DNA of 64,000 nucleotides from Escherichia phage kaset: sequence record PV245935.1; one strand, 5' to 3'. Below the pieces are notes generated by a model. The model was given only the letters and a program-made list of their open reading frames with translations. It did not search any database and was not told the origin of the DNA. The stretch's first letter is position 1; each line of letters begins with the position of its first letter. The position numbers and the translations under genes are program-made. Of the stretch, positions 1 to 10,706 are shown one piece after another.

Positions 1-596
1 AAGGTCTGGAGGGTATTGCGGATTACTACCTGAAAGAAGGTCAGGATGTGGATTTTGACCCTCAAAAAGATTCACGGTCGGTGCAACCGTCTACCCTTCC
101 AAGCGTCAAAGGTAATGTCGTTAACTTACGACACAACGTTGGAAAGATGGACGCAGCATCGTTACCTAAGATGAAGTTGCACGGGCTGATTCTTGGGATT
201 GAGAATCCTCGCAACAGCATCCGTAGAGGGAACAGCCTTGACGGTGAATGGGCAGTCAAGATGCCGCATCACTACGGATTCATCAAGGGCACTAAGGGCG
301 CGGACGGCGATGAAGTCGACTGCTTTGTTGGTCCAAATATGAAGTCGCCGAAGGTCTTTATCGTTAACCAGAACGATAATTACTCTGGCGAGTTTGATGA
401 ACACAAGTGTATGCTTGGATTCGATTCAGCAGAAGAAGCGAAAGAAGCTTATCAAGCATCATTTGGTAACGGTTGGAATGGATTCGACTCAATCCACGAA
501 TTAGATGTGAACTCATTCAAGGAGTGGTTGAAGGGTGATTGCTCTCAAGCATACGGAGCACTCAATAATCCTACTAATTCACCGAAGCAAGGTTGA
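1..596 (+). CDS. Partial CDS (5' end outside window); C-terminal region carries an inorganic-pyrophosphatase-like signature
   Basis: Frame is open from window start into track ORF 48..596; motif YGFIKGT...DGDEVDC fits the family I pyrophosphatase pattern D-[SGDN]-D-[PE]-[LIVMF]-D as I recall it. Confidence 0.5.
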   Translation, partial: GLEGIADYYLKEGQDVDFDPQKDSRSVQPSTLPSVKGNVVNLRHNVGKMDAASLPKMKLHGLILGIENPRNSIRRGNSLDGEWAVKMPHHYGFIKGTKGADGDEVDCFVGPNMKSPKVFIVNQNDNYSGEFDEHKCMLGFDSAEEAKEAYQASFGNGWNGFDSIHELDVNSFKEWLKGDCSQAYGALNNPTNSPKQG

Positions 597-597
597 T

Positions 598-1449
598 ATG
601 GCTTTTAAAGCTTCGAAAAAACGTGAGCGCCGCTCACCCGATAGAATCGGGCGCGGCAGTCCGATAATCCCATCAAACGCTATTGCGATGGCCTACCGTC
701 GTGAGATGAAAGGTCTTTGCTATGCGATGATTGATGACTATCAGGAAGGCATTTCAGAATGGCTTGACAAGAAGCAGGTGCAGAAGTTTTTTGCGCAAGA
801 CTCTGCTGATTCGACATTCCAGACCCTTATGAAACGGCTGCAGCTGAAATGGGCAAAGGCGTTTGCACGTGTTGGGTCGAAGATTGCTGCTGATTTTGTC
901 AAATCGGTCGAAAAGGGTGCCACTTCTGCTACATTCGCCAGCCTTAAGTCCGCAGGCATAGAAGCGCCAAAGGCCACGTACAACAAATTCGTTGAGAACA
1001 CTCTTAGAACAAGCGAGACATTTAACACGACTCTAGTGACCAAGGTCGGCGAGGATATTCACAACAGAGTGTACGAAGCAGTAATGCTTTCACTGACTTC
1101 GCCCGACCCAGCCAAACAAGGCACGTCAGGCATTCAGGCGGCGCTGCGAAACGTCAAACACTTTTCTGCAAAGAGAGTCGATTTAATCGCTAAAGATCAA
1201 ACAAGTAAATTGTATTGCGTTCTAAGCGATGAAAGAATGCGCCAGAATGGAGTTGAAGAATTTGAGTGGGCGCACTCAGGAGCAGGAAAGGAGCCGCGAA
1301 TCTCTCATGAACACGTCGACGGAATGAGATTCAAACTTGATGACAAGCGTCTATGGGAAGTTGGCGGAGAATTGAAGTTCAAAAAGGGCGACATCGGTCC
1401 TCCTGGATGGGCGATACACTGCAAGTGCAGGAAAATACCAATCATTTGA
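598..1449 (+). CDS. Head morphogenesis protein, Mu F / SPP1 gp7-like
   Basis: ATG at 598 overlaps upstream stop (TGATATG); C-terminal R-x-S-H-x-H-x-DG motif (PRISHEHVDGMRF) typical of MuF-like minor head proteins. Confidence 0.7.
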   Translation: MAFKASKKRERRSPDRIGRGSPIIPSNAIAMAYRREMKGLCYAMIDDYQEGISEWLDKKQVQKFFAQDSADSTFQTLMKRLQLKWAKAFARVGSKIAADFVKSVEKGATSATFASLKSAGIEAPKATYNKFVENTLRTSETFNTTLVTKVGEDIHNRVYEAVMLSLTSPDPAKQGTSGIQAALRNVKHFSAKRVDLIAKDQTSKLYCVLSDERMRQNGVEEFEWAHSGAGKEPRISHEHVDGMRFKLDDKRLWEVGGELKFKKGDIGPPGWAIHCKCRKIPII

Positions 1450-1456
1450 GGTCATT

Positions 1457-2377
1457 ATGACGATACCAATCAGCACGTTTCCTCTATCTGGACAAACGCC
1501 AGTATTACCTGCTGTATATGCGAACGGTTTGGCGATTGTTTCAGAATTTACATCCGATAAAAATTTGATTGTTCCATTGAGTCCGCCATTGGCATCTGGA
1601 TACAATTCAGTCGGACAATTCTTTATGATCGGTAATGATGGAGATTCTACCAGCAAACCGAATCTGACCCTTTCAGTCCCCAAAATGAACATAACAGACG
1701 TGCAGACTGGTTTGACTGCATCTACAATCACCATCGCTTTTGGAGAAGCAGTGATTATAGGCATGGAGTCTGGAGGGTCCAAGAATGCTGTCGCCGTTAA
1801 AGTAGTCAAATCCAGCGGCAACCAATACACATTACCAGCAGCAACGGCTTCTGTTCTTGGCGGAGTCAAAATAGGGAGTGGCATAAGCGTTGCAGGTGAC
1901 GGTACAATTAGCGTGACTCAATACTCATTACCGATTGCATCAGCATCAACCTTGGGTGGCATAAAGGTAGGTACGACACTATCAATTGATGGTTCTGGAG
2001 TTCTCAATGCTGCTGCAAGCACTGTGCAGAACGCAAGCAACAGCGTAAGCAATCCTCCGACAACTCTGGTGAATCTGGCAACCTTAAACCTGCCTGCAGG
2101 GAAATGGCTTGTGACAGCAAGTCAGTTGACTGTTGCGACAGAAGGAGTTCAAGCGAATACCGGAATTACAGTCAAACTGTCAACAAGTAATTCAGATATT
2201 ACGGATGATGCATTTACGATGTCAGCTGGCATTCGGGCTGCAGGTCGTTTCGGCGGCAATATTCCAACAAAAATAATTACTCTTGCCGCGCCTGGCAACG
2301 TGTATCTAAACTATCAATGCACAGACGCATTGACATCTACCGTTTACGGACAGATCACCGCAATTAAGTTGAACTAA
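1457..2377 (+). CDS. Structural protein with internal Gly/Ser-rich repeats (decoration or fiber-like)
   Basis: RBS GAGG before ATG; repeated segments LGGVKIGSGISVAGDGTISV / LGGIKVGTTLSIDGSGVL. Confidence 0.6.
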   Translation: MTIPISTFPLSGQTPVLPAVYANGLAIVSEFTSDKNLIVPLSPPLASGYNSVGQFFMIGNDGDSTSKPNLTLSVPKMNITDVQTGLTASTITIAFGEAVIIGMESGGSKNAVAVKVVKSSGNQYTLPAATASVLGGVKIGSGISVAGDGTISVTQYSLPIASASTLGGIKVGTTLSIDGSGVLNAAASTVQNASNSVSNPPTTLVNLATLNLPAGKWLVTASQLTVATEGVQANTGITVKLSTSNSDITDDAFTMSAGIRAAGRFGGNIPTKIITLAAPGNVYLNYQCTDALTSTVYGQITAIKLN

Positions 2378-2387
2378 AGAGGAAGTT

Positions 2388-2525
2388 ATGCAAAAGATTA
2401 TTCAGTCACGTTACGTTAAAGTGCGAAATATTAATTGCAACTCTTTGCTTTCTTGGAAATGGGCTGTTTACGACTCGATGCTGATTGGCGTTTTAGTTGC
2501 TGGAGTGCTTTTTAATATTCACTGA
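2388..2525 (+). CDS. Small hydrophobic protein (45 aa), hypothetical
   Basis: Strong RBS AAGAGGAAG 4-11 nt before ATG; C-terminal hydrophobic stretch MLIGVLVAGVLF; below the ORF-track size cutoff. Confidence 0.4.
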   Translation: MQKIIQSRYVKVRNINCNSLLSWKWAVYDSMLIGVLVAGVLFNIH

Positions 2526-2539
2526 ATCGCCTGGCAGTG

Positions 2540-2835
2540 GATTGCCGCAGGATTTTACGCGTATAATGACGTATCATCCGTATCAAGTAAGTAGTTGTTT
2601 TCAAAAGAATCTTACGGATGATACGGATGATACGCGTTGCCGCGATACTTTATAGGAATTCAAATAAATTAATTTAAAATTATATATCTAATTTAATTTT
2701 ATTTTTTTATAAACTCTTATATATGAAAAGTATCCGTATCATCCGTATCATCCGTAGCACACCAGTGATAGCGCGGCTTATACACCGATACGGATAAAAA
2801 TACGCCTCATTTTATCCGTATCATCCGTATCACAC
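2540..2835. repeat. Iteron-like module A: 9-mer ATCCGTATC arrays in direct and inverted orientation around an AT-rich core
   Basis: Direct copies at 2576-2584, 2732-2756, 2814-2831; inverted TACGGATGA x2 at 2613-2630; AT-rich 2646-2730; homologous to 54601-54890. Confidence 0.7.
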
Positions 2836-2889
2836 TAATTAAGGCGCGGCTATATCGGTTGTTATACATATTCAAACCATAATTATTGT

Positions 2890-2918
2890 TTGCCTAAGTT
2901 TTTTTCATTAGATATAAT
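2890..2918 (+). promoter_or_regulatory. Sigma70-like promoter candidate upstream of the scaffold/capsid genes
   Basis: -35 TTGCCT (2890-2895), 17 bp spacer, -10 TATAAT (2913-2918); ATG at 2942. Confidence 0.4.
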
Positions 2919-2941
2919 ACACAATACTTATTTGAGGGTGG

Positions 2942-4363
2942 ATGCGAATGCAAACGGCACGCGAAATTGACAAAAATGGATTCTTGACGATTGTGGGTTG
3001 TCCCATTTCGTCATTTGGCATTTTTGATTATTCTGCAGGTCAGGTTGGACTTGATGGTGATCCGAATCGCATCGTAAAAGTTTATCGCCCAGAGTCAGCG
3101 GTGAAAGACCCCGAAGCGATAGATTCATTCAAAAATATCCCTTTCATCGACAATCACGAAATGCTTTCTGGATTCGAAGGTGATGAGGATAACACGGCAC
3201 CCGAAGAGTATGGCGTTGATGGAGTTCTAACTGGCAATGTTTATTATGACAAGCCATGGATGCGCGGCGACCTTAAAGTTTTTAGCCGTCGTCTGAAGAA
3301 AGCCATCGATTCTGGAAAGGTTGACTTGTCTTTGGGCTATGACTGTGAATTCATCATACAGTCTGGAGAGTTTGACGGGCAGCCGTATGAAGTGGTACAG
3401 ACAACTCTTCGCGGCAACCACATTGCTCTCGTGGACGTTGGTCGAGTACCAGGTGCACGGGTGCTGGATGGTCGTTGCTTTGACCATCTTTGTTTGACGA
3501 CTGTAACACCATCCAACGAGGATTTAGATATGCCAAAACCGTTAAAAGGTAAAGCGCGTGATAATGCTGTTGAACAGCTGAAATCACTGATCCCTGCGCT
3601 CGAACAATTTCTGAATGAAGAGAGCACCGAAGCTGCTCATCAGGATGAAGTTGAAGTGAAAGCAGAAGAGAAGGATTCAACCGAAGAACGTGAAGAAGTG
3701 ATGGTTGATCCAGAAGTCAAAGCAGAAGCTGAAGAGACTCCAGAAGGTGAAGAGAAGTTTGAAGTTGAAACTGAATCTCACGCTGGTGGCGAGCTTCCGC
3801 AACTGATCAGCCAAATCGAAGCACTTATTGCAAAACTGAAAGGTGGCGCGGTAGGTGATGAAGAAGAAGTTGAAGCCGAAGTCAAAGACGAAGAAGAAGT
3901 TGAAGTCAAGGCTGAAGATGTATCACCTTGCGACAAAGCTGAAGATGTGGTTAGCGGCCTGCAAAACAGCAACGTAAAGGGGGCTTCGGTCGAAAAAGAT
4001 GACAAACCGACAAAAGCGGCGAAAGCGTCGCCAGGTCCAGCAAAAGGGGAACACTCAATGGCATCTGATTCAGCAGTTGCTGCTTTCTACGCTGATTCTG
4101 CTCGTAAGAATAGCCTCTACCAGCGCCTGTCTAAAGTTGTTGGTGCCTTTGATCATGCAACTATGGACTCCAAGTCCGTAGCGAAATATGGCGCTAAAAA
4201 GTTAGGCTTGAAGTGCGTTGATGGCGCTGAGTTTGACGTTGTGGATAACTATCTGCGCGGCGTTGAACACGGTCAAAAACAGCGTGTAGTCGCAAAACAA
4301 AAGGCCGCTGCGGATTCTGCAGCAACTGACGAAGCATTTGAAGCTTGGTTGAAAGGGGAATAA
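2942..4363 (+). CDS. Putative scaffolding / prohead assembly protein with acidic repeat region
   Basis: Lies immediately upstream of the capsid candidate; long E/V/K-rich acidic repeats (EEVEAEVKDEEEVEVKAED); RBS GAGGG. Confidence 0.55.
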   Translation: MRMQTAREIDKNGFLTIVGCPISSFGIFDYSAGQVGLDGDPNRIVKVYRPESAVKDPEAIDSFKNIPFIDNHEMLSGFEGDEDNTAPEEYGVDGVLTGNVYYDKPWMRGDLKVFSRRLKKAIDSGKVDLSLGYDCEFIIQSGEFDGQPYEVVQTTLRGNHIALVDVGRVPGARVLDGRCFDHLCLTTVTPSNEDLDMPKPLKGKARDNAVEQLKSLIPALEQFLNEESTEAAHQDEVEVKAEEKDSTEEREEVMVDPEVKAEAEETPEGEEKFEVETESHAGGELPQLISQIEALIAKLKGGAVGDEEEVEAEVKDEEEVEVKAEDVSPCDKAEDVVSGLQNSNVKGASVEKDDKPTKAAKASPGPAKGEHSMASDSAVAAFYADSARKNSLYQRLSKVVGAFDHATMDSKSVAKYGAKKLGLKCVDGAEFDVVDNYLRGVEHGQKQRVVAKQKAAADSAATDEAFEAWLKGE

Positions 4364-4365
4364 AC

Positions 4366-4983
4366 ATGACTTTCCAAACTAGTGTAGGCCGTCAATATAC
4401 AACTGGCTTTCCTGGCGACATCGTTCGCGACGGCCCACAGCGTGGGAAGCCAGGCCGAATTGCCAACGCTAACGAAGGCGCAAACGTAAACGCCATCAGC
4501 CGTGTGTTCGGTTTTAAGACTGACGTATCCTTAATGGGTACTGGTCAAACCAAAACTTTGGGCGCGCAGGACTTTGAAGTTGAGCTGGGCGGCACTAACT
4601 ACTACGGCATCCTCGGTAATAGCAAGCGTTACGCGCTGTATGGCAACTCTACTGGTCCTTTAGGTGCCAGCATGGTTCTGCCTCAATATAGCGAAGGCGA
4701 GTTTTACGATATGTGCACGGGCCTTGTAGTTGAAGTATTCAACCCAAGCACCAGCCCGCAGACGCTTAACTATGGCGACCTGCTCGCTTATGTACCTAAA
4801 GGCATTTCCGGCGCGAACAACCCGAACAACTTGCCTATTGGCGCAATTATCGCCTATACTGGCTCACTGCCAACTGGCATGGTTGCCATCCCAGGCGGTA
4901 TTGTGATTGACCCGACTGCTATTGCCCTTTCCGGTCCAAGCGTCCAGTCTTCCACTTATACCATTGTACAATTGACTCGTTAA
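4366..4983 (+). CDS. Head-associated structural protein, hypothetical
   Basis: ATG 4366 with RBS GAAAGGGG; sits between scaffold-like and capsid candidate genes. Confidence 0.55.
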   Translation: MTFQTSVGRQYTTGFPGDIVRDGPQRGKPGRIANANEGANVNAISRVFGFKTDVSLMGTGQTKTLGAQDFEVELGGTNYYGILGNSKRYALYGNSTGPLGASMVLPQYSEGEFYDMCTGLVVEVFNPSTSPQTLNYGDLLAYVPKGISGANNPNNLPIGAIIAYTGSLPTGMVAIPGGIVIDPTAIALSGPSVQSSTYTIVQLTR

Positions 4984-4997
4984 TAGGCAGGTGAATA

Positions 4998-6137
4998 ATG
5001 ACTCGCATTAGCCAAACACACTCTCGCCTCCCAGCGAGCAAGGTGCGCCCTTTTGATATGCAATCCGTTACCGACGCGGCTGTTTCCCAGCTTGCTCGTA
5101 TCGGTATTGTGTTTGATTCCGCGATTGTGCGTGATCAGATTGAGCACTTAAACCGTGCAGGCGCTTTCCGCGTAGGTGACGCCGCGTTTACTGCACCGCA
5201 GACCACGCCATCAATCCCGACCCCGCTGCAGTTCCTGCAACAGTGGCTGCCTGGCTTCGTCAAAATCATGACCGCTGCTCGTAAAATTGACGAGCTGGTT
5301 GGTATTGACACCGTTGGCCAGTGGGAAGATGCAGAAATCGTTCAGGGCATTGTTGAACCAGCTGGCACCGCAGTTGAATATGGTGATTTCACCGCCATTC
5401 CTCTGGCAAGCTGGAACGTAAACTTTGAACGCCGTTCCATCGTTCGCGGTGAAATGGGCATGGCAGTCGGCATGCTGGAAGAAGGTCGCGCGTCTGCGAT
5501 GCGTCTGAACTCCGCAGAAACCAAGCGCCAGCAGGCTGCTGTATCTCTGGAAATCATGCGTAACGCAATCGGCTTCTATGGTTGGTACAACGGGAACAAC
5601 CGCACGTTCGGCTTCCTGAATGATCCAAACCTGCCAGCGGCGATGACTTCAAACACCACTTCCGGCTGGGCTACTGCGACCTTCCAACAGGTGACTGCAG
5701 ACATCCGTTTGATGGTTCGTCAAATTCGTGTAAACTCTCAGGACCAGATTGATCCAGAGAAGGTTGACATGACTCTGGCGCTGCCGACCAACTCTATTGA
5801 TTGGCTGTCAAACACCACCGACTTCGGTATTTCTGTACGTGACTGGATCACCCAGACTTATCCGAAGATGAAGATCAAATCTGCACCGGAACTCAACGGC
5901 GCACTTGGCAGTGACCCGACTTTCCTGAACGTGGCATATCTGTACGCTGATCACATCGATTCCTCAATTGATGGCTCAAGCGATGATGGTTCCGTATTCA
6001 GTCAGCTGGTCCAGACTAAGTTTATGACTCTGGGCGTTGAGAAACGTGCTAAGAGCTACGTTGAAGACTACGCAAACGCAACAGCAGGCGTTCTGCTCAA
6101 GCGTCCTTTCGCAGTCGTCCGTATGACTGGTATCTAA
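4998..6137 (+). CDS. Major capsid protein candidate
   Basis: 379 aa ORF following the scaffold-like gene; position and size typical of a major capsid protein; stem-loop follows the stop. Confidence 0.55.
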
Positions 6138-6162
6138 TTGCTGTGATTACACAGTAAAACAC

Positions 6163-6192
6163 ATGGGGCGTGGTCGAAAGGCTTCGCCCCAT
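6163..6192 (+). terminator. GC-rich stem-loop after capsid gene (possible terminator or mRNA stability element)
   Basis: GGGGCG ... CGCCCC inverted repeat; no clear U-tract. Confidence 0.3.
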
Positions 6193-6252
6193 ATCAATAG
6201 ACCTCAAGGGCTGTAGGGGCTTATCTGAGGCTTATATAAATAGGACTACAAA

Positions 6253-6717
6253 ATGCCAAAATATATCGTTTCAACTATGTCTATGTCAGTCAACTACACT
6301 TTCTATACTGAAGTGAAAGAAAACCCGAACGCAAAAGCTGGTTCAGGCGCTCTTCCAAATATTCGCAAACAGATTCTGATTAAGGGCGGCGCTGGCCTTA
6401 CTTCGGCAACCTCCGGCTTTGGTGAAATGGCAAAAGGCGCTGATGGTGCACCTTTGTGGACTCCTGAAGGAATCGTCACCGTTGTAAGCGATGCTGATTT
6501 TGAACATCTAAAAGATCATCACGTATTCAAGCAACACCTTGAAAAAGGTCTGGTTAAAGTCGTAAATCACGACATTGTTGGCAATCACAAAGCTGTCGCT
6601 AAAGAAGTGCGCGGCATGTCAGATGACCCGTTCGCACCTATGACGCGTGAGACGGCTGACAAGCGCATCAAGGTTAAATTGAGCGGCGACCAAGAAGATG
6701 ATTTGTTCCGCGTTTAA
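6253..6717 (+). CDS. Hypothetical structural protein
   Basis: ORF with ATG start in head-tail joining region. Confidence 0.5.
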   Translation: MPKYIVSTMSMSVNYTFYTEVKENPNAKAGSGALPNIRKQILIKGGAGLTSATSGFGEMAKGADGAPLWTPEGIVTVVSDADFEHLKDHHVFKQHLEKGLVKVVNHDIVGNHKAVAKEVRGMSDDPFAPMTRETADKRIKVKLSGDQEDDLFRV

Positions 6718-6731
6718 ATAAGGTGAATGCC

Positions 6732-7187
6732 ATGTCATTAGATTACGAAAAGTTCAGAATAAAATTTCCACAGTTTGCTGATCAGGTCAAATTCCCTGAC
6801 ACAACGCTTCAAGTATTCTATGACATGGCATGTGAATTTATTGAATCACAAGACAGTCCTTGTCGTGTTTTAAATGGCAGTAAATTGGAGCTGGCATTGG
6901 AATATATGACGGCTCATCTTTTATGCATAGCCGCAGACCAACAGGTGTCTGTGTCTTCTGGTGACGGAGTTGAACAAGGCGGTTTCGTGACTGGTGCAAC
7001 AATCGGTGACATCACCGTGAATAAAGTAGCGCCGCCTGCGAGTGATGGTTGGGAATACTGGCTGTCAAGCACTCCTTATGGCATGGCGTTGTGGGCGCTT
7101 CTTCAAGCACTGGCCGTTGGCGGCTTGTCATTCGGTGGGCTTCCAGAGCGCGAAGGATTTCGTAAAATTGGTGGGGTATTCTGGTGA
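6732..7187 (+). CDS. Hypothetical structural protein (head-tail connector region)
   Basis: In-frame ATG at 6732 preceded by AAGGTG RBS. Confidence 0.5.
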   Translation: MSLDYEKFRIKFPQFADQVKFPDTTLQVFYDMACEFIESQDSPCRVLNGSKLELALEYMTAHLLCIAADQQVSVSSGDGVEQGGFVTGATIGDITVNKVAPPASDGWEYWLSSTPYGMALWALLQALAVGGLSFGGLPEREGFRKIGGVFW

Positions 7188-7570
7188 GGATTCCTGGCGT
7201 AAACTTATATCGAGTTGCGACAAAGGTCATCGGTCGCCAACCGATTCAATATTACATGTACAAGGGGCGCACTCTTGATAAAATGCGCAACTACGTTACA
7301 ACTTATGAAGAACCAATCACGCTACTTGCTTCGGTGCAGGCTGTTCTTCGAAATCAATACGTCGAGCTTGGATTAGAGCTTCAAAAGAACTATGTCAAAA
7401 TCTGGGTAGACAAAGACATTGTTGACCTTGACCGCGATGCTTCCGGCGACTATTTTGTGTTTGGTGGGAAAAAGTATAAAATGGAAGATGAAACGACATG
7501 GTTTGACCAAGATGGTTGGACGTCTTGCCTTGCCGTGGAAGTAAAACAAAGCTTTCCAGTGTCTACTTGA
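7184..7570 (+). CDS. Hypothetical structural protein
   Basis: Track ORF with GTG start overlapping upstream stop; start uncertain. Confidence 0.45.
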   Translation: MRIPGVNLYRVATKVIGRQPIQYYMYKGRTLDKMRNYVTTYEEPITLLASVQAVLRNQYVELGLELQKNYVKIWVDKDIVDLDRDASGDYFVFGGKKYKMEDETTWFDQDGWTSCLAVEVKQSFPVST

Positions 7571-7577
7571 GGTGTAT

Positions 7578-8153
7578 ATGACAGATGTCGACCTGATTGA
7601 CATGCTGGCAACGCGAATTGAAGAAGGTCTGGCGGCGTATAGTCGTGCAGACCTTTCTGCTGTTCCGGTCCAGAAAAAGTATCAACCGACTCAACAGGGC
7701 ATTCCGACTGGTGATCAAATTTGGTTTAACCTTTTATTCTCAGTTCCTTTTGGATGGTCCATGAGGAAAAGTGAATTTGCCAATGATGAGTCTCAATTCG
7801 TAAACGGCAAATTTAAAGATATTGAAGATCAGATATACGCAACACGTTTTCAAATCAGCGGCTTATTTCCAGAAGTTCCTGGCAATCCAGAAAAGCCTAC
7901 TGCTAATGACGTGTTGACTTATTTGGCAAGATTCATAACTCATAAAGCTAATCTGAGAGATTGGTTCAAAAAGCATCAGGCATCAGTATATCGAATCGAC
8001 ATGAATAATAATGAAAAGTTTTATGATGACATGTCACAATTCGAATCATTCCCTTCTTTTGATTTAGTAATACTTCACAGAAACGCAATTTCAATTGATA
8101 CTCCTGCAGTGGCAAGAGCTGTTAATAATGATTTGGGTGACGTTCCGGTGTAA
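7578..8153 (+). CDS. Hypothetical structural protein
   Basis: ATG 7578 after GAGGTG RBS. Confidence 0.5.
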   Translation: MTDVDLIDMLATRIEEGLAAYSRADLSAVPVQKKYQPTQQGIPTGDQIWFNLLFSVPFGWSMRKSEFANDESQFVNGKFKDIEDQIYATRFQISGLFPEVPGNPEKPTANDVLTYLARFITHKANLRDWFKKHQASVYRIDMNNNEKFYDDMSQFESFPSFDLVILHRNAISIDTPAVARAVNNDLGDVPV

Positions 8154-8154
8154 T

Positions 8155-8640
8155 ATGACAAAATCAAAAATGATAGAAAAACAGATTAAGGCACTTCAAT
8201 CTATGAAGGGTCTTACTGTTGAGGCAGGATGGTTTGATTCTACCAGATACCCTTCAGAAACTGGTGGAGAAGGCATGCTGGTGTCAGAAGTCGCGCGGCT
8301 TAACGAGTTTGGTCACATAGCCGTTTTGAACTTTGGACAAGGCCCAGTCAGGGTAGAAGTGCCACCCAGACCATTCATGAGATATGCCTATGAATTATTC
8401 GTTAGTGAGCGCAGTGAAATAGAGAATAAAATTGCTAAAAAGATTTTTTCCGGTAAAATAGACGCTAGACAGGCATTGGGTCAAATTGGGCTTGCGATGG
8501 AAGCAAAGATTGTCGAATCAATTAAAAACGGACCGTGGCAACCAAACGCCAGATATACTGTACGTGTGAAGGGATTCGACAAGCCTTTGATTCACACTAG
8601 CCTCATGTGGCAATCTGTCAGCAGCCAAGTCATTAAATAA
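8155..8640 (+). CDS. Hypothetical structural protein
   Basis: ATG at 8155 immediately after upstream stop. Confidence 0.5.
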   Translation: MTKSKMIEKQIKALQSMKGLTVEAGWFDSTRYPSETGGEGMLVSEVARLNEFGHIAVLNFGQGPVRVEVPPRPFMRYAYELFVSERSEIENKIAKKIFSGKIDARQALGQIGLAMEAKIVESIKNGPWQPNARYTVRVKGFDKPLIHTSLMWQSVSSQVIK

Positions 8641-8652
8641 GAGGACACCGAC

Positions 8653-10191
8653 GTGATCAGTCAATCTCGTTATATTAAAATTGTATCAGGGGTCGGAGCA
8701 GGCGCGGCTGTTGCAGTTCGCAAACTGTCGCTTCGCGTCATGACTTCTAATACAGTTCTGCCGCCAGGCATTGTAGCAGAATTTTCAACGGCTGATGCTG
8801 TTGGATCATATTTCGGTTATTCTTCCGAAGAATATAAGCGCGCAGCATTATATTTTGGATTCATCAGCAAGCAAATTAACTCGCCTGATTCAATCAGCTT
8901 CTCGCGTATTGTTTCAACTGCGATCCCAGCAATGGTCATCGGTGATACTGAGCCTAAAGTGCTTGCTACGTTTCAAGCATTCACTGGCGCTATCTTAAGC
9001 ATCACTTATGATGGCACAGACTACCTGACTGACGCAATTAACCTTTCAGCGGCAACAAGCCTGGCAAATGTGGCTGAACTTCTGGAAACGGCAATCAATA
9101 CTAAATTTGCAGCAGAAGGTGGCACGTCGGTGCCTGCACTTGCTGATGCAGAAGTGTATTGGAACGCTAATACTCAGCAGTTCACGCTGGAAGCAGCGCC
9201 GTCGACCGCTGGTGCAGGCAATCTGTCTATCAACGTCACAGGCCAACCGACCGACCCGTCTCAGGCATTGGGTTGGACCACCACTGGCACCGTAACCGTT
9301 GCAGGCCAGGGCGTTTCAAGTCCGGTAGAAGCCATCGCGGCATCTGTGGAAATCTCCAACAACTTTGGCTCATTCCTTTTTGCTGGGGCTGACCGAACTC
9401 TGGAAGAAATTACCGCTGTGGCAGCGTGGACTCATTCGCAGAATAATATGTACATGTATTTATTCTCGACTTCGTTCGCTAATATCGGGTCATACTACAC
9501 CGCTCTGAAAGGGTACTCAGGCGTTGGCATGATGATTCGCGCAACTAACCTTGCCAACGATTACATCGACCAAGCACCTGCTGAAATCCTCGCGGCAACA
9601 AACTATAATACTGTGAATGCGACTCAAAACTACATGTATTATCAGTTTGATACTCGCAACGTGACTGTTTCAACTGACTCTCGCGCAGATACTGCTGATC
9701 AAAACCGTGCGAACTACATCGGTGCTACTCAGCAGGCCGGACAAACCTTGGCATTCTTCCAGCGCGGCGTATTGATGGGCGGGTCAACAGCAGCAGTTGA
9801 TATGAACACTTATGCCAACGAAATGTGGCTCAAGTCTGCTATTACATCTCAGCTGTTCAGCATGTTCTTGAATCTTGGTCGCGTCCCTGCTAACGAAGAA
9901 GGGAAAGCGACTGTGCAAGCCATGATTCAGGTTGCTGTGGATAACGCAAAAGTGAACGGCACCATCTCTGTTGGCAAGGCGCTGACTGAGATTCAGAAAC
10001 AATACATCACGCAAACTTCCGGTGACAACACTGCTTGGCGGCAGGTTGAAACTATCGGTTACTGGCTGACTGTAGATTTTGATACTGAAACCACTTCCGA
10101 TGGGCGCACCGAATACTATGCAACATACACGCTAATCTACTCTAAAGATGATGCTGTGCGTCGCGTTGAAGGTCGTGACGTTCTTATCTAA
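8653..10191 (+). CDS. Tail sheath-like / major tail structural protein candidate
   Basis: 512 aa ORF directly upstream of tube-like genes; GTG start with AAGAGGA RBS; assignment by size and synteny only. Confidence 0.45.
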   Translation: MISQSRYIKIVSGVGAGAAVAVRKLSLRVMTSNTVLPPGIVAEFSTADAVGSYFGYSSEEYKRAALYFGFISKQINSPDSISFSRIVSTAIPAMVIGDTEPKVLATFQAFTGAILSITYDGTDYLTDAINLSAATSLANVAELLETAINTKFAAEGGTSVPALADAEVYWNANTQQFTLEAAPSTAGAGNLSINVTGQPTDPSQALGWTTTGTVTVAGQGVSSPVEAIAASVEISNNFGSFLFAGADRTLEEITAVAAWTHSQNNMYMYLFSTSFANIGSYYTALKGYSGVGMMIRATNLANDYIDQAPAEILAATNYNTVNATQNYMYYQFDTRNVTVSTDSRADTADQNRANYIGATQQAGQTLAFFQRGVLMGGSTAAVDMNTYANEMWLKSAITSQLFSMFLNLGRVPANEEGKATVQAMIQVAVDNAKVNGTISVGKALTEIQKQYITQTSGDNTAWRQVETIGYWLTVDFDTETTSDGRTEYYATYTLIYSKDDAVRRVEGRDVLI

Positions 10192-10196
10192 ATAAT

Positions 10197-10217
10197 TGCC
10201 GCCGTAACTGGCGGCCA
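10197..10217 (+). terminator. Stem-loop after sheath-like gene
   Basis: GCCGCC-GTAACT-GGCGGC hairpin immediately after stop; weak U-tract. Confidence 0.3.
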
Positions 10218-10238
10218 TCTCTCTGAGAGGAATCTGTA

Positions 10239-10706
10239 ATGATTAACGTTTCCGGTTTTGGCGCTTCGATTCGTTTAGTGGCATCAAACACTTTTCCAAA
10301 TGGTGTAACTCTTTCTGATTTCGCAGATGATGCTGATCCGATTGACGCGCCTGATCTTCAAATCTCTGAAGCAGCAATGGGATTGAACGGTGACCTGGTA
10401 GTATGGAACCGTGCCAACCCTCTTGAAGTAGGCGTCAACATCATCCCTACTTCTGAAAGCGATGTGAACTTAGATGTTCTGGCAGCGGCTAACCGTGTAG
10501 GCAAGCGAAAGAACTCTGCGAAAGACGTGATCACCCTTATTCTGACCTACCCTTCTGGCATGGTCATTACACTGAACAAGGGCACTTTGACGACTGGCTC
10601 AGTAATTCCTGGCATCCAGTCTCAGGGTCGTGTAAAAACACGTCAATATCGCTTTAAGTTTGAGAACGTAGTCAAAACTGGCGTGAGCAACCAAGAGATT
10701 TTATAA
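10239..10706 (+). CDS. Tail tube-like protein, paralog 1
   Basis: RBS GAGAGG; N-terminus MINVSGFGASIRLVA matches paralog at 11657. Confidence 0.55.
   Translation: MINVSGFGASIRLVASNTFPNGVTLSDFADDADPIDAPDLQISEAAMGLNGDLVVWNRANPLEVGVNIIPTSESDVNLDVLAAANRVGKRKNSAKDVITLILTYPSGMVITLNKGTLTTGSVIPGIQSQGRVKTRQYRFKFENVVKTGVSNQEIL

Follow-up and report, generated by a model that had tools for sequence, protein, structure and literature searches.

A pyrophosphatase-type InPase domain at the C-terminal end of the portal protein of Escherichia phage kaset

The first 596 nucleotides of the stretch of Escherichia phage kaset DNA analyzed here (64,000 nt of sequence record PV245935.1; hereafter, the window) hold the 3′ end of the portal gene, and it is almost certain that this portal bears a domain of the inorganic pyrophosphatase (PPase) type, InPase. 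The best overall explanation for the domain, which we consider likely, is a phosphoanhydride hydrolase kept inside the capsid, tethered to the portal and serving the start of infection. The window begins inside a plus-strand open reading frame (ORF) in frame 3, whose first whole codon is at nt 3 and whose stop codon, TGA, is at nt 594–596; these 197 residues are only the C-terminal appendage of the portal. The features on which the argument is built are the following, with predicted local distance difference test scores abbreviated as pLDDT.

1..596, plus strand: 3′ end of the portal gene, codons 595–791 of a 791-codon ORF and the stop codon TGA at 594–596, from the translation
3..164, plus strand: distal part of the flexible linker that joins the barrel of the portal to its enzyme domain, window residues 1–54 (full-length residues 595–648)
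165..533, plus strand: InPase domain, window residues 55–177 (full-length residues 649–771), a trimmed family-I-PPase-type β-barrel with two helices
201..224, plus strand: strand-1 motif IENPRNSIR, with E67 (nt 201–203) and R74 (nt 222–224) as equivalents of E. coli PPase E20 and K29
273..323, plus strand: motif YGFIKGTKGADGDEVDC, with Y91, D101, D103 and D106 as equivalents of E. coli Y55, D65, D67 and D70
396..407, plus strand: DEHK motif with D132, E133 and K135, which probably correspond to the second acidic pair that binds metal and to K104 of E. coli PPase
534..593, plus strand: C-terminal tail after the domain (LKGDCSQAYGALNNPTNSPKQG), pLDDT 55–82
598..1449, plus strand: MuF-like head morphogenesis gene, Pfam Phage_Mu_F at 31.0 bits (cutoff 29.6), in the same place in relatives

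A preliminary description of this DNA had noticed a PPase-type signature in a partial ORF directly upstream of a MuF-like head gene, where a portal or head gene would be expected. Both observations held: YGFIKGTKGADGDEVDC ends in the heptad DGDEVDC (nt 303–323), and the gene starting with the ATG at nt 598, one nucleotide past the portal stop, passes the Phage_Mu_F model and has its product detected in virions by mass spectrometry (MS). The ORF occupies the portal position because it is a portal whose C-terminal end bears a PPase-type domain. The phage is a Wifcevirus: over its first 6.2 kb the window is ~97–98% identical to phages of that genus (15 best records), the named relatives being FEC19, WFH, ECML-117 and Mansfield, which are E. 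coli and Shigella myophages of ~68 kb. All 197 residues are identical (100%) to the C-terminus of the Mansfield protein QEG09849.1 (791 aa), which is annotated as portal and encoded between the large terminase and MuF genes; the kaset portal gene would start ~1.78 kb upstream of the window. The portal-fold domain lies outside the window and was read from this Mansfield protein. Pfam analysis of the full-length relative revealed Phage_portal_3 (PF06381) at residues 122–468 (E = 4e-88) and InPase (PF18823) at residues 649–771 (E = 2e-46, 157.4 bits), and the ORF is unbroken and exactly 791 codons long in 8/8 complete Wifcevirus genomes. The Wifcevirus portal aligned over its whole length, InPase included, with the gp19 portal of Pa193 (9B41; E = 2e-250), and its residues 107–538 aligned with the modelled part of E217 gp19 (8FVH). 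The complete ORF, which it had been suggested to retrieve and which was taken here from relatives, is a portal with a C-terminal InPase domain, and not a structural family devoid of a PPase fold. Of the arrangements first considered, fusion of an enzyme domain to structural genes or its insertion among them, it is the fusion that stands, with portal and InPase in one ORF; the family then named, PF00719, is not the matching one. The GenBank labels of the orthologous gene are portal, minor head (as in WFH), minor capsid, virion or hypothetical protein, or inorganic pyrophosphatase, and none of the labels seen names both domains; we recommend annotating them as "portal protein with C-terminal InPase domain". 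Scans for tRNAs, Rfam families, and promoters and terminators (over the window or nt 1–3100) gave nothing above chance that bears on the portal gene.

Window residues 55–177 matched InPase (PF18823, a family presumably derived from the work of Iyer et al. discussed below) with an E value of 2.3e-47 and 160.7 bits (cutoff 26.8), over model positions 12–135 of 135. The classical model PF00719 reached 20.7 bits on the window fragment against a cutoff of 23.5, with just 26 residues aligned; the match is to its sister family. The family I PPase signature, which we take to be D-[SGDN]-D-[PE]-[LIVMF]-D-[LIVMGAC], is fitted by DGDEVDC and occurred once in the six-frame translation of the 64 kb, against 0.0065 matches expected from composition. 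When a profile of 49 homologues was searched against all PDB sequences, 33 matches were obtained at E ≤ 10; the Pa193 portal came first, and 31 of the 32 others were family I PPases (best E = 0.0065). Alignment of the profile by hhalign with an alignment of four PDB PPases gave 91% probability and an E value of 1e-6 over 50 columns, from strand 1 through the signature. An AlphaFold2 (AF2) model built from the homologue alignment had a pLDDT above 90 over residues 50–180, with a PPase-like strand-strand-helix order and a short 6+6 hairpin where classical PPases carry extra hairpin material. Its top structural neighbors were all PPases by two independent methods, with modest Foldseek TM-scores to them (0.37–0.46). 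The domain thus has the PPase barrel fold, together with the marks of PF18823, namely a score over most of the model, the lost hairpin, the acidic residues of a two-metal site and a virion or polyvalent-protein context. We conclude that it is a divergent, trimmed PPase homologue and not a chance motif. That the signature is a coincidence in an ordinary portal C-terminus unrelated to pyrophosphatases, for which the sub-cutoff PF00719 score and the modest TM-scores might speak, has a vanishingly small probability and is already effectively refuted by the PF18823 match (E = 2e-47), the rarity of the heptad by chance, the two sets of structural neighbors and a profile alignment that reaches past the motif to strand 1 (the E20 and K29 equivalents).

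The classical PPase active site comprises ~14 polar residues, which in the E. coli enzyme are E20, K29, E31, R43, Y51, Y55, D65, D67, D70, D97, D102, K104, Y141 and K142. In the yeast and E. coli enzymes K29, Y55 and K104, together with the metals, hold the attacked phosphate, and R43, Y141 and K142 hold the leaving phosphate. We counted conservation over the 49 homologues (alignment A1), using window residue numbering and, at each column, only the sequences with a residue there. E67 was found in 46/46 and R74 in 47/47; Y91, G92 and D106 were invariant (49/49 each), as were D132, E133 and K135, and D101 was present in 48/49. The D103 position held D in 42 homologues and E in 5, and the K173 position held K in 36 and R in 5. 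The hhalign pairings with E. coli PPase were E67 with E20, R74 with K29, Y91 with Y55, and D101/D103/D106 with D65/D67/D70. The profile–profile alignment is confident only for its N-terminal 50 columns, and the pairing of DEHK with D102 and K104 comes only from a low-confidence profile stretch and strand position. Between the E20 and F44 equivalents the InPase profile has gaps of 2, 1 and 6 residues, E. coli 38–43 being deleted; the equivalents of E31 and R43 are lost in these gaps. Y51 and D97 align with variable positions, and F takes the place of Y141. The full classical set is therefore not present: E20, K29 (as R), Y55, D65, D67 and D70 have well-supported equivalents, and those of D102, K104 and K142 are weakly supported. 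With the phosphate-holding roles given above for the yeast and E. coli enzymes, the catalytic center would be intact and the leaving-group pocket remodelled, as would suit a substrate used instead of PPi or in addition to it. Because residues that hold the leaving phosphate are lost or changed (E31 and R43 deleted, Y141 replaced by F), the substrate may be inorganic pyrophosphate (PPi) or a pyrophosphate-containing nucleotide. Seven portal-fused proteins from different lineages retain the key residues, with one exception, the Q at the D103 position of the metagenomic protein P0059. There, at the equivalent of window nt 309–311, the motif reads DGQDVD, the candidate general-base Asp being replaced, and the InPase of this lineage may, judging from its residues, be inactive.

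Within the portal, InPase hangs on a poorly conserved linker of ~150 residues that follows the C-terminal barrel; the linker is probably disordered, and its part in the window (residues 1–54) has an AF2 pLDDT of 39–60. The portal of E217 was built for residues 97–528 of 765 and ends in an α-helical barrel, which reaches into the head and becomes ordered only with DNA (8FVH); that of Pa193 was built for residues 94–528 (9B41). In both, residues 529–765 gave no density. Neither structure paper mentions a pyrophosphatase or enzyme domain. Because the barrel of these homologous solved portals points inward, the ~260 residues that follow it (linker and InPase) are placed inside the capsid, above the portal. 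Each virion should therefore hold twelve InPase copies, flexibly tethered above the portal inside the head, if kaset follows these homologues. Two high-resolution virion atlases missed these twelve copies of a probable enzyme, as averaging erases flexible parts.

Virion proteomics, which had been proposed as a check, gave a positive answer in published data. Necel et al. 2020 (PMC7048862) analyzed by MS the CsCl-purified phages vB_Eco4M-7 and ECML-117, both Wifcevirus, and we mapped their peptide table for vB_Eco4M-7_36 (791 aa, 559 peptide-spectrum matches, PSMs) onto the portal protein. The peptides span residues 12 to 789, with 40 PSMs in the N-terminus (12–53), 21 in the portal core, 59 in the linker (499–637), 427 in InPase (653–741) and 12 in the C-terminal tail. 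The InPase peptides are LHGMILGIENPR, MPHHYGFIK, GADGDEVDcFVGPNMK, VFIINQNDNYSGEFDEHK and cMLGFDSAEEAK, so that the signature itself is covered by a tryptic peptide (the third) from purified virions; the tail is represented by GDcSQAYGALNNPTNSPK, and virions of ECML-117 yielded the same InPase peptides. The domain is therefore present in purified particles of both phages, and very probably in mature virions. Translation of InPase as a free protein from an internal start was considered and rejected, as the linker ATGs (e.g., at nt 147) lack a convincing ribosome-binding site and the linker peptides found in virions, EGLEGIADYYLK and GNVVNLR, span the region. The PSMs are unevenly spread, with 427/559 (76%) from five InPase peptides versus 21 from the 390-residue portal core; this may reflect peptide detectability, or a domain more accessible or abundant than the core. 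The same vB_Eco4M-7 data include two peptides, ISQTHSR and DQIEHLNR, that come from the N-terminal ~55 residues of the major capsid protein (gene at window 4998–6137). In the PB1-like phage KPP12, the N-terminus of the mature capsid protein aligns at about residue 64 of the capsid protein here, and the N-terminal sequences in the KPP12 paper are only those of the capsid protein, the decoration protein and one other protein. The two peptides reflect either other processing in Wifcevirus, unprocessed particles or a retained propeptide. A K8 virion dataset considered as Pbunavirus proteomics was set aside, as that phage belongs to a different genus (Pakpunavirus-type) without such a portal.

At the level of sequence analysis the fusion is already known, because Iyer, Burroughs, Anand, de Souza and Aravind (2017, J Bacteriol 199:e00245-17; PMC5512222) described both the domain and its fusion to a portal. 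They defined InPase as a clade of polyvalent proteins that lacks the hairpin and is confined to phage-type polyvalent proteins, cited the portal fusion BcepF1.124 of Burkholderia phage BcepF1, treated portal fusions as related simple architectures, and proposed that the domain is injected and degrades a nucleotide of the infection response or clears PPi. BcepF1, a relative of the present phage, was also among our homology matches. What is added here is the support for the fold, the residue-level split between the center and the pocket, the estimates of selection, the link to the unmodelled residues 529–765 of two virion structures, and the recognition of domain peptides in published MS data. 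The kaset domain shares with PF18823 the shortened hairpin region, the conserved acids and the phage-virion context, with no structural difference. Typical polyvalent proteins hold 2–15 effector domains, whereas here the portal is joined to InPase alone, its single effector-type domain, without a metallopeptidase domain for release; relatives add an ADP-ribosyltransferase or topoisomerase IB. Compared with family I PPases (E. coli Ppa, Thermus thermophilus 2PRD), InPase has the same barrel-plus-two-helix topology and DxDxxD signature, but it has ~130 residues instead of ~175, with nine positions deleted between strands 1 and 4, and it is part of a dodecameric portal instead of assembling into free hexamers.

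The gp19 portals of the Pbunavirus phages E217 and Pa193 are orthologous, with the gene order TerL, portal, MuF, scaffold/protease and decoration, then capsid in common. The first 93 residues of the Pa193 portal went undetected by liquid chromatography–MS, whereas peptides from residues 12–53 were detected in Wifcevirus virions. Capsid-packaged effectors that are injected include the T4 ADP-ribosyltransferase Alt and internal proteins, DarB of P1 and the virion RNA polymerase of N4 (in part covered by the introduction of PMC5512222). The portal InPase would resemble these proteins in being an enzyme in the head near the portal, and an Alt-like ADP-ribosyltransferase follows InPase in relatives; those proteins, however, are free cargo with targeting sequences, whereas InPase is covalently part of the portal.

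The domain is widespread. By tblastn it was found in 470 phage records, ~350 of which cover most of the 197 residues; the matches are mainly from Pseudomonas Pbunavirus, with others from phages of Serratia, Xanthomonas, Burkholderia, Pantoea and Luteibacter, and within the collection searched more than 300 sequenced phages have the portal–InPase fusion. When 1.84 billion cluster representatives were searched exhaustively, 11,285 clusters (at 50% identity) matched with E ≤ 0.001, and the InPase-bearing proteins among the best 150 clusters range from 161 to 6421 aa; a word-indexed search had given 51 short proteins only, and it was the exhaustive search that revealed the true architectural range. 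Luteibacter phage Pluto has a portal–InPase gene followed by MuF, the whole portal gene being annotated "inorganic pyrophosphatase", and Sinorhizobium phage PBC5 has InPase within a 2180-aa DarB-like protein. A separate InPase gene is found in 157-kb Vibrio phages (202 aa) and, in a portal-adjacent cluster, in Bordetella phage PHB04 (169 aa; region 1–10282). The order in PHB04 is portal, RelA/SpoT-like, Ser/Thr protein phosphatase, InPase and a very large DarB-like N6-methylase, a polyvalent repertoire in unfused form. In PHROGs, the window protein belongs to phrog_4660 ("minor head protein"), and the domain also occurs in giant families that include "DarB-like antirestriction".

A Pfam scan of nine cluster representatives from the exhaustive search found portal plus InPase in 3/9, two InPase domains in P0052, and InPase as the sole Pfam domain in P0068, P0069 and P0097. 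Two metagenomic proteins carry a further enzyme: P0054 (1191 aa) is portal, InPase and an ADP-ribosyltransferase exoenzyme domain, and P0059 (1106 aa) is portal, InPase and a bacterial-type topoisomerase IB. The portal C-terminus may thus be a carrier for varied enzymes. P0054 and P0059 share a short motif directly after InPase (DFKEGDHPRAKNGQFGSG and DFKESEHPRAPNGKFGQGSG, respectively) that is not in the window protein and could be a junction, docking or processing motif; a look-up of "HPR" in the text of Iyer et al. 2017 gave no match. One stand-alone metagenomic InPase gene is placed after baseplate genes. Another stand-alone metagenomic InPase, at 7001–7669, lies among genes for QueC, a glutamine amidotransferase/Asn-synthase-like protein, a radical SAM protein, a methyltransferase and a sugar epimerase/dehydratase, which suggests a role in nucleotide or DNA-modification chemistry and not as virion cargo.

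We estimated selection by pooling Nei–Gojobori counts from every pairwise comparison among eight Wifcevirus portal genes. The ratio of nonsynonymous to synonymous divergence (dN/dS) was 0.019 for the InPase domain (dS 0.45, dN 0.0086), 0.018 for the N-terminal 106 residues, 0.008 for the portal core and 0.029 for the linker (541–645). Across distant lineages, identity to Wifcevirus was 49–65% for InPase, 57–67% for the portal core, 24–28% for the linker and 17–33% for the N-terminus. Among Wifcevirus genomes the dS of the portal gene climbs from 5′ to 3′ (N-terminus 0.20, core 0.32, linker and InPase 0.45–0.46) and drops to 0.07 in the last 16 codons, beside the MuF start; the first 600 nt of the window are 90.7–98% identical to relatives, versus the average of ~97–98% over 6.2 kb (15 best records). 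The dS gradient and the identity pattern suggest a mosaic origin, or constraint on the nucleotide sequence where the two genes meet.

Taken as a catalyst, which the residues make reasonably probable, InPase would be a divalent-metal-dependent phosphoanhydride hydrolase. Retention of the metal-holding acids, of the candidate general base and of the residues for the attacked phosphate would allow it to hydrolyze a phosphoanhydride, in PPi or in a pyrophosphate-containing nucleotide. It would be virion cargo active at the very start of infection, either cleaved off the portal and exiting together with the DNA or working at the portal itself. In line with the proposal of Iyer et al. for the family, it might remove PPi or break down a host signal of the nucleotide type. 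The constellation of metal ligands and Lys, Arg and Tyr residues is invariant across very different architectures, which argues for selection for catalysis, and the DarB-like proteins and portal–ADP-ribosyltransferase fusions indicate a need at entry; the topoisomerase IB fusion and the portal-adjacent gene cluster of PHB04 also fit a role as cargo. Actual release of InPase into the host is a weaker part of the proposal, and we hold it doubtful. If the domain is injected or active at entry, the portal would be a simple, genetically tractable structural protein that doubles as an effector carrier. Pbunavirus and Wifcevirus phages bearing the fusion are used in phage therapy and in biocontrol of E. 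coli O157, and the Wifcevirus phages Bas98–101 of the BASEL collection carry portal–InPase.

Several points weigh against this explanation. In addition to the failure of the classical PF00719 model, the C-terminal half of the active-site alignment is of low confidence and one residue off register with the DEHK/EDAK comparison, and two classical phosphate-binding residues are missing, so PPi hydrolysis is not assured. In the literature searched we found no enzyme assay for any PF18823 member and nothing relevant on an assay or structure of a portal InPase. The tail is more than 1000 Å long, too far for a domain tethered by 150 residues to pass through to the host, so that delivery would need a so far hypothetical cleavage. 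The MS data are bottom-up and from whole virions, so that a tethered domain and one cleaved but retained look the same, and the sample, which holds capsid peptides missing from the mature KPP12 protein, may have included some immature particles. Finally, some stand-alone homologues sit in clusters for nucleotide or sugar modification, and the family is therefore not exclusively virion cargo.

A more specific version of the proposal makes the portal-borne InPase an active anti-defence enzyme, released or exposed at ejection, that destroys a pyrophosphate-containing host molecule; we consider this unlikely as it stands. Its candidate targets, offered with equally little confidence, would be an immune signal, or precursor of one, derived from ADP-ribose or of the alarmone type. 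Its corollaries are no stronger: the C-terminal tail of the portal would serve as a common track for injected cargo such as InPase, ADP-ribosyltransferase and topoisomerase IB, and the loss of the R43 and E31 equivalents would be an adaptation from PPi to a bulkier nucleotide substrate.

Among the alternatives to a hydrolase serving entry, the one that survives best, although we rate it as improbable, is a non-catalytic phosphate- or DNA-binding structural module in the head, a ring of twelve Mg-phosphate-binding domains above the portal barrel that grips or organizes the first- or last-packaged DNA end or aids portal incorporation as the procapsid assembles. The domain is permanently encoded on the portal without a peptidase domain in the chain, peptides of the whole chain, linker included, were found in virions as expected of an uncleaved protein, and the residues of the classical leaving-group pocket are partly lost, all of which would suit such a module. 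The Q of portal-fused P0059 at candidate general base D103 would suit it too, as would the E217 barrel, whose folding only with DNA shows that this end of the portal senses DNA. However, the metal constellation and the Lys, Arg and Tyr residues are equally invariant in stand-alone and giant polyvalent proteins, to which a role at the portal or DNA end is inapplicable, and two cryo-electron microscopy studies show no ordered density on the DNA.

Less probable still, and in our view quite remote, is that the domain works in the producing cell, where free portal late in infection would hydrolyze PPi and so drive DNA replication, transcription or nucleotide modification; the capsid would then hold the domain as a by-product of the fusion. 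PPi clearance is among the options of Iyer et al. (PMC5512222), one stand-alone homologue has as neighbors QueC, amidotransferase, radical-SAM and sugar-nucleotide enzymes, whose reactions release PPi, and the window has no tRNA or other sign of metabolism that would speak against the idea. Yet a portal is a low-copy late protein and a poor bulk enzyme, and the domain recurs in predicted or annotated packaged cargo (DarB-like proteins, portal–ADP-ribosyltransferase). Moreover, E. coli has an abundant, essential PPase of its own, as is generally known. We therefore retain the portal-tethered hydrolase acting at the start of infection as the preferred explanation.

Two minor observations concern the genes beyond MuF. 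Between a 45-codon ORF and the DUF2213 protease/scaffold gene, window 2526–2941 comprises 416 nt without an annotated gene; a sigma-70-like site matching at 10/12 positions lies at 2890–2918 and a terminator-like hairpin at 2487–2509, at the upstream edge of this gap, and the counts of such sites and hairpins were not above those in shuffled controls. The gene directly after MuF, at window 1457–2377, weakly matches PF11133, the head fibre family of the phi29 type (29.3 bits, cutoff 24.6). Relatives label it as head fibre, tail fibre, tail connector or hypothetical, and its product is abundant in virion MS.

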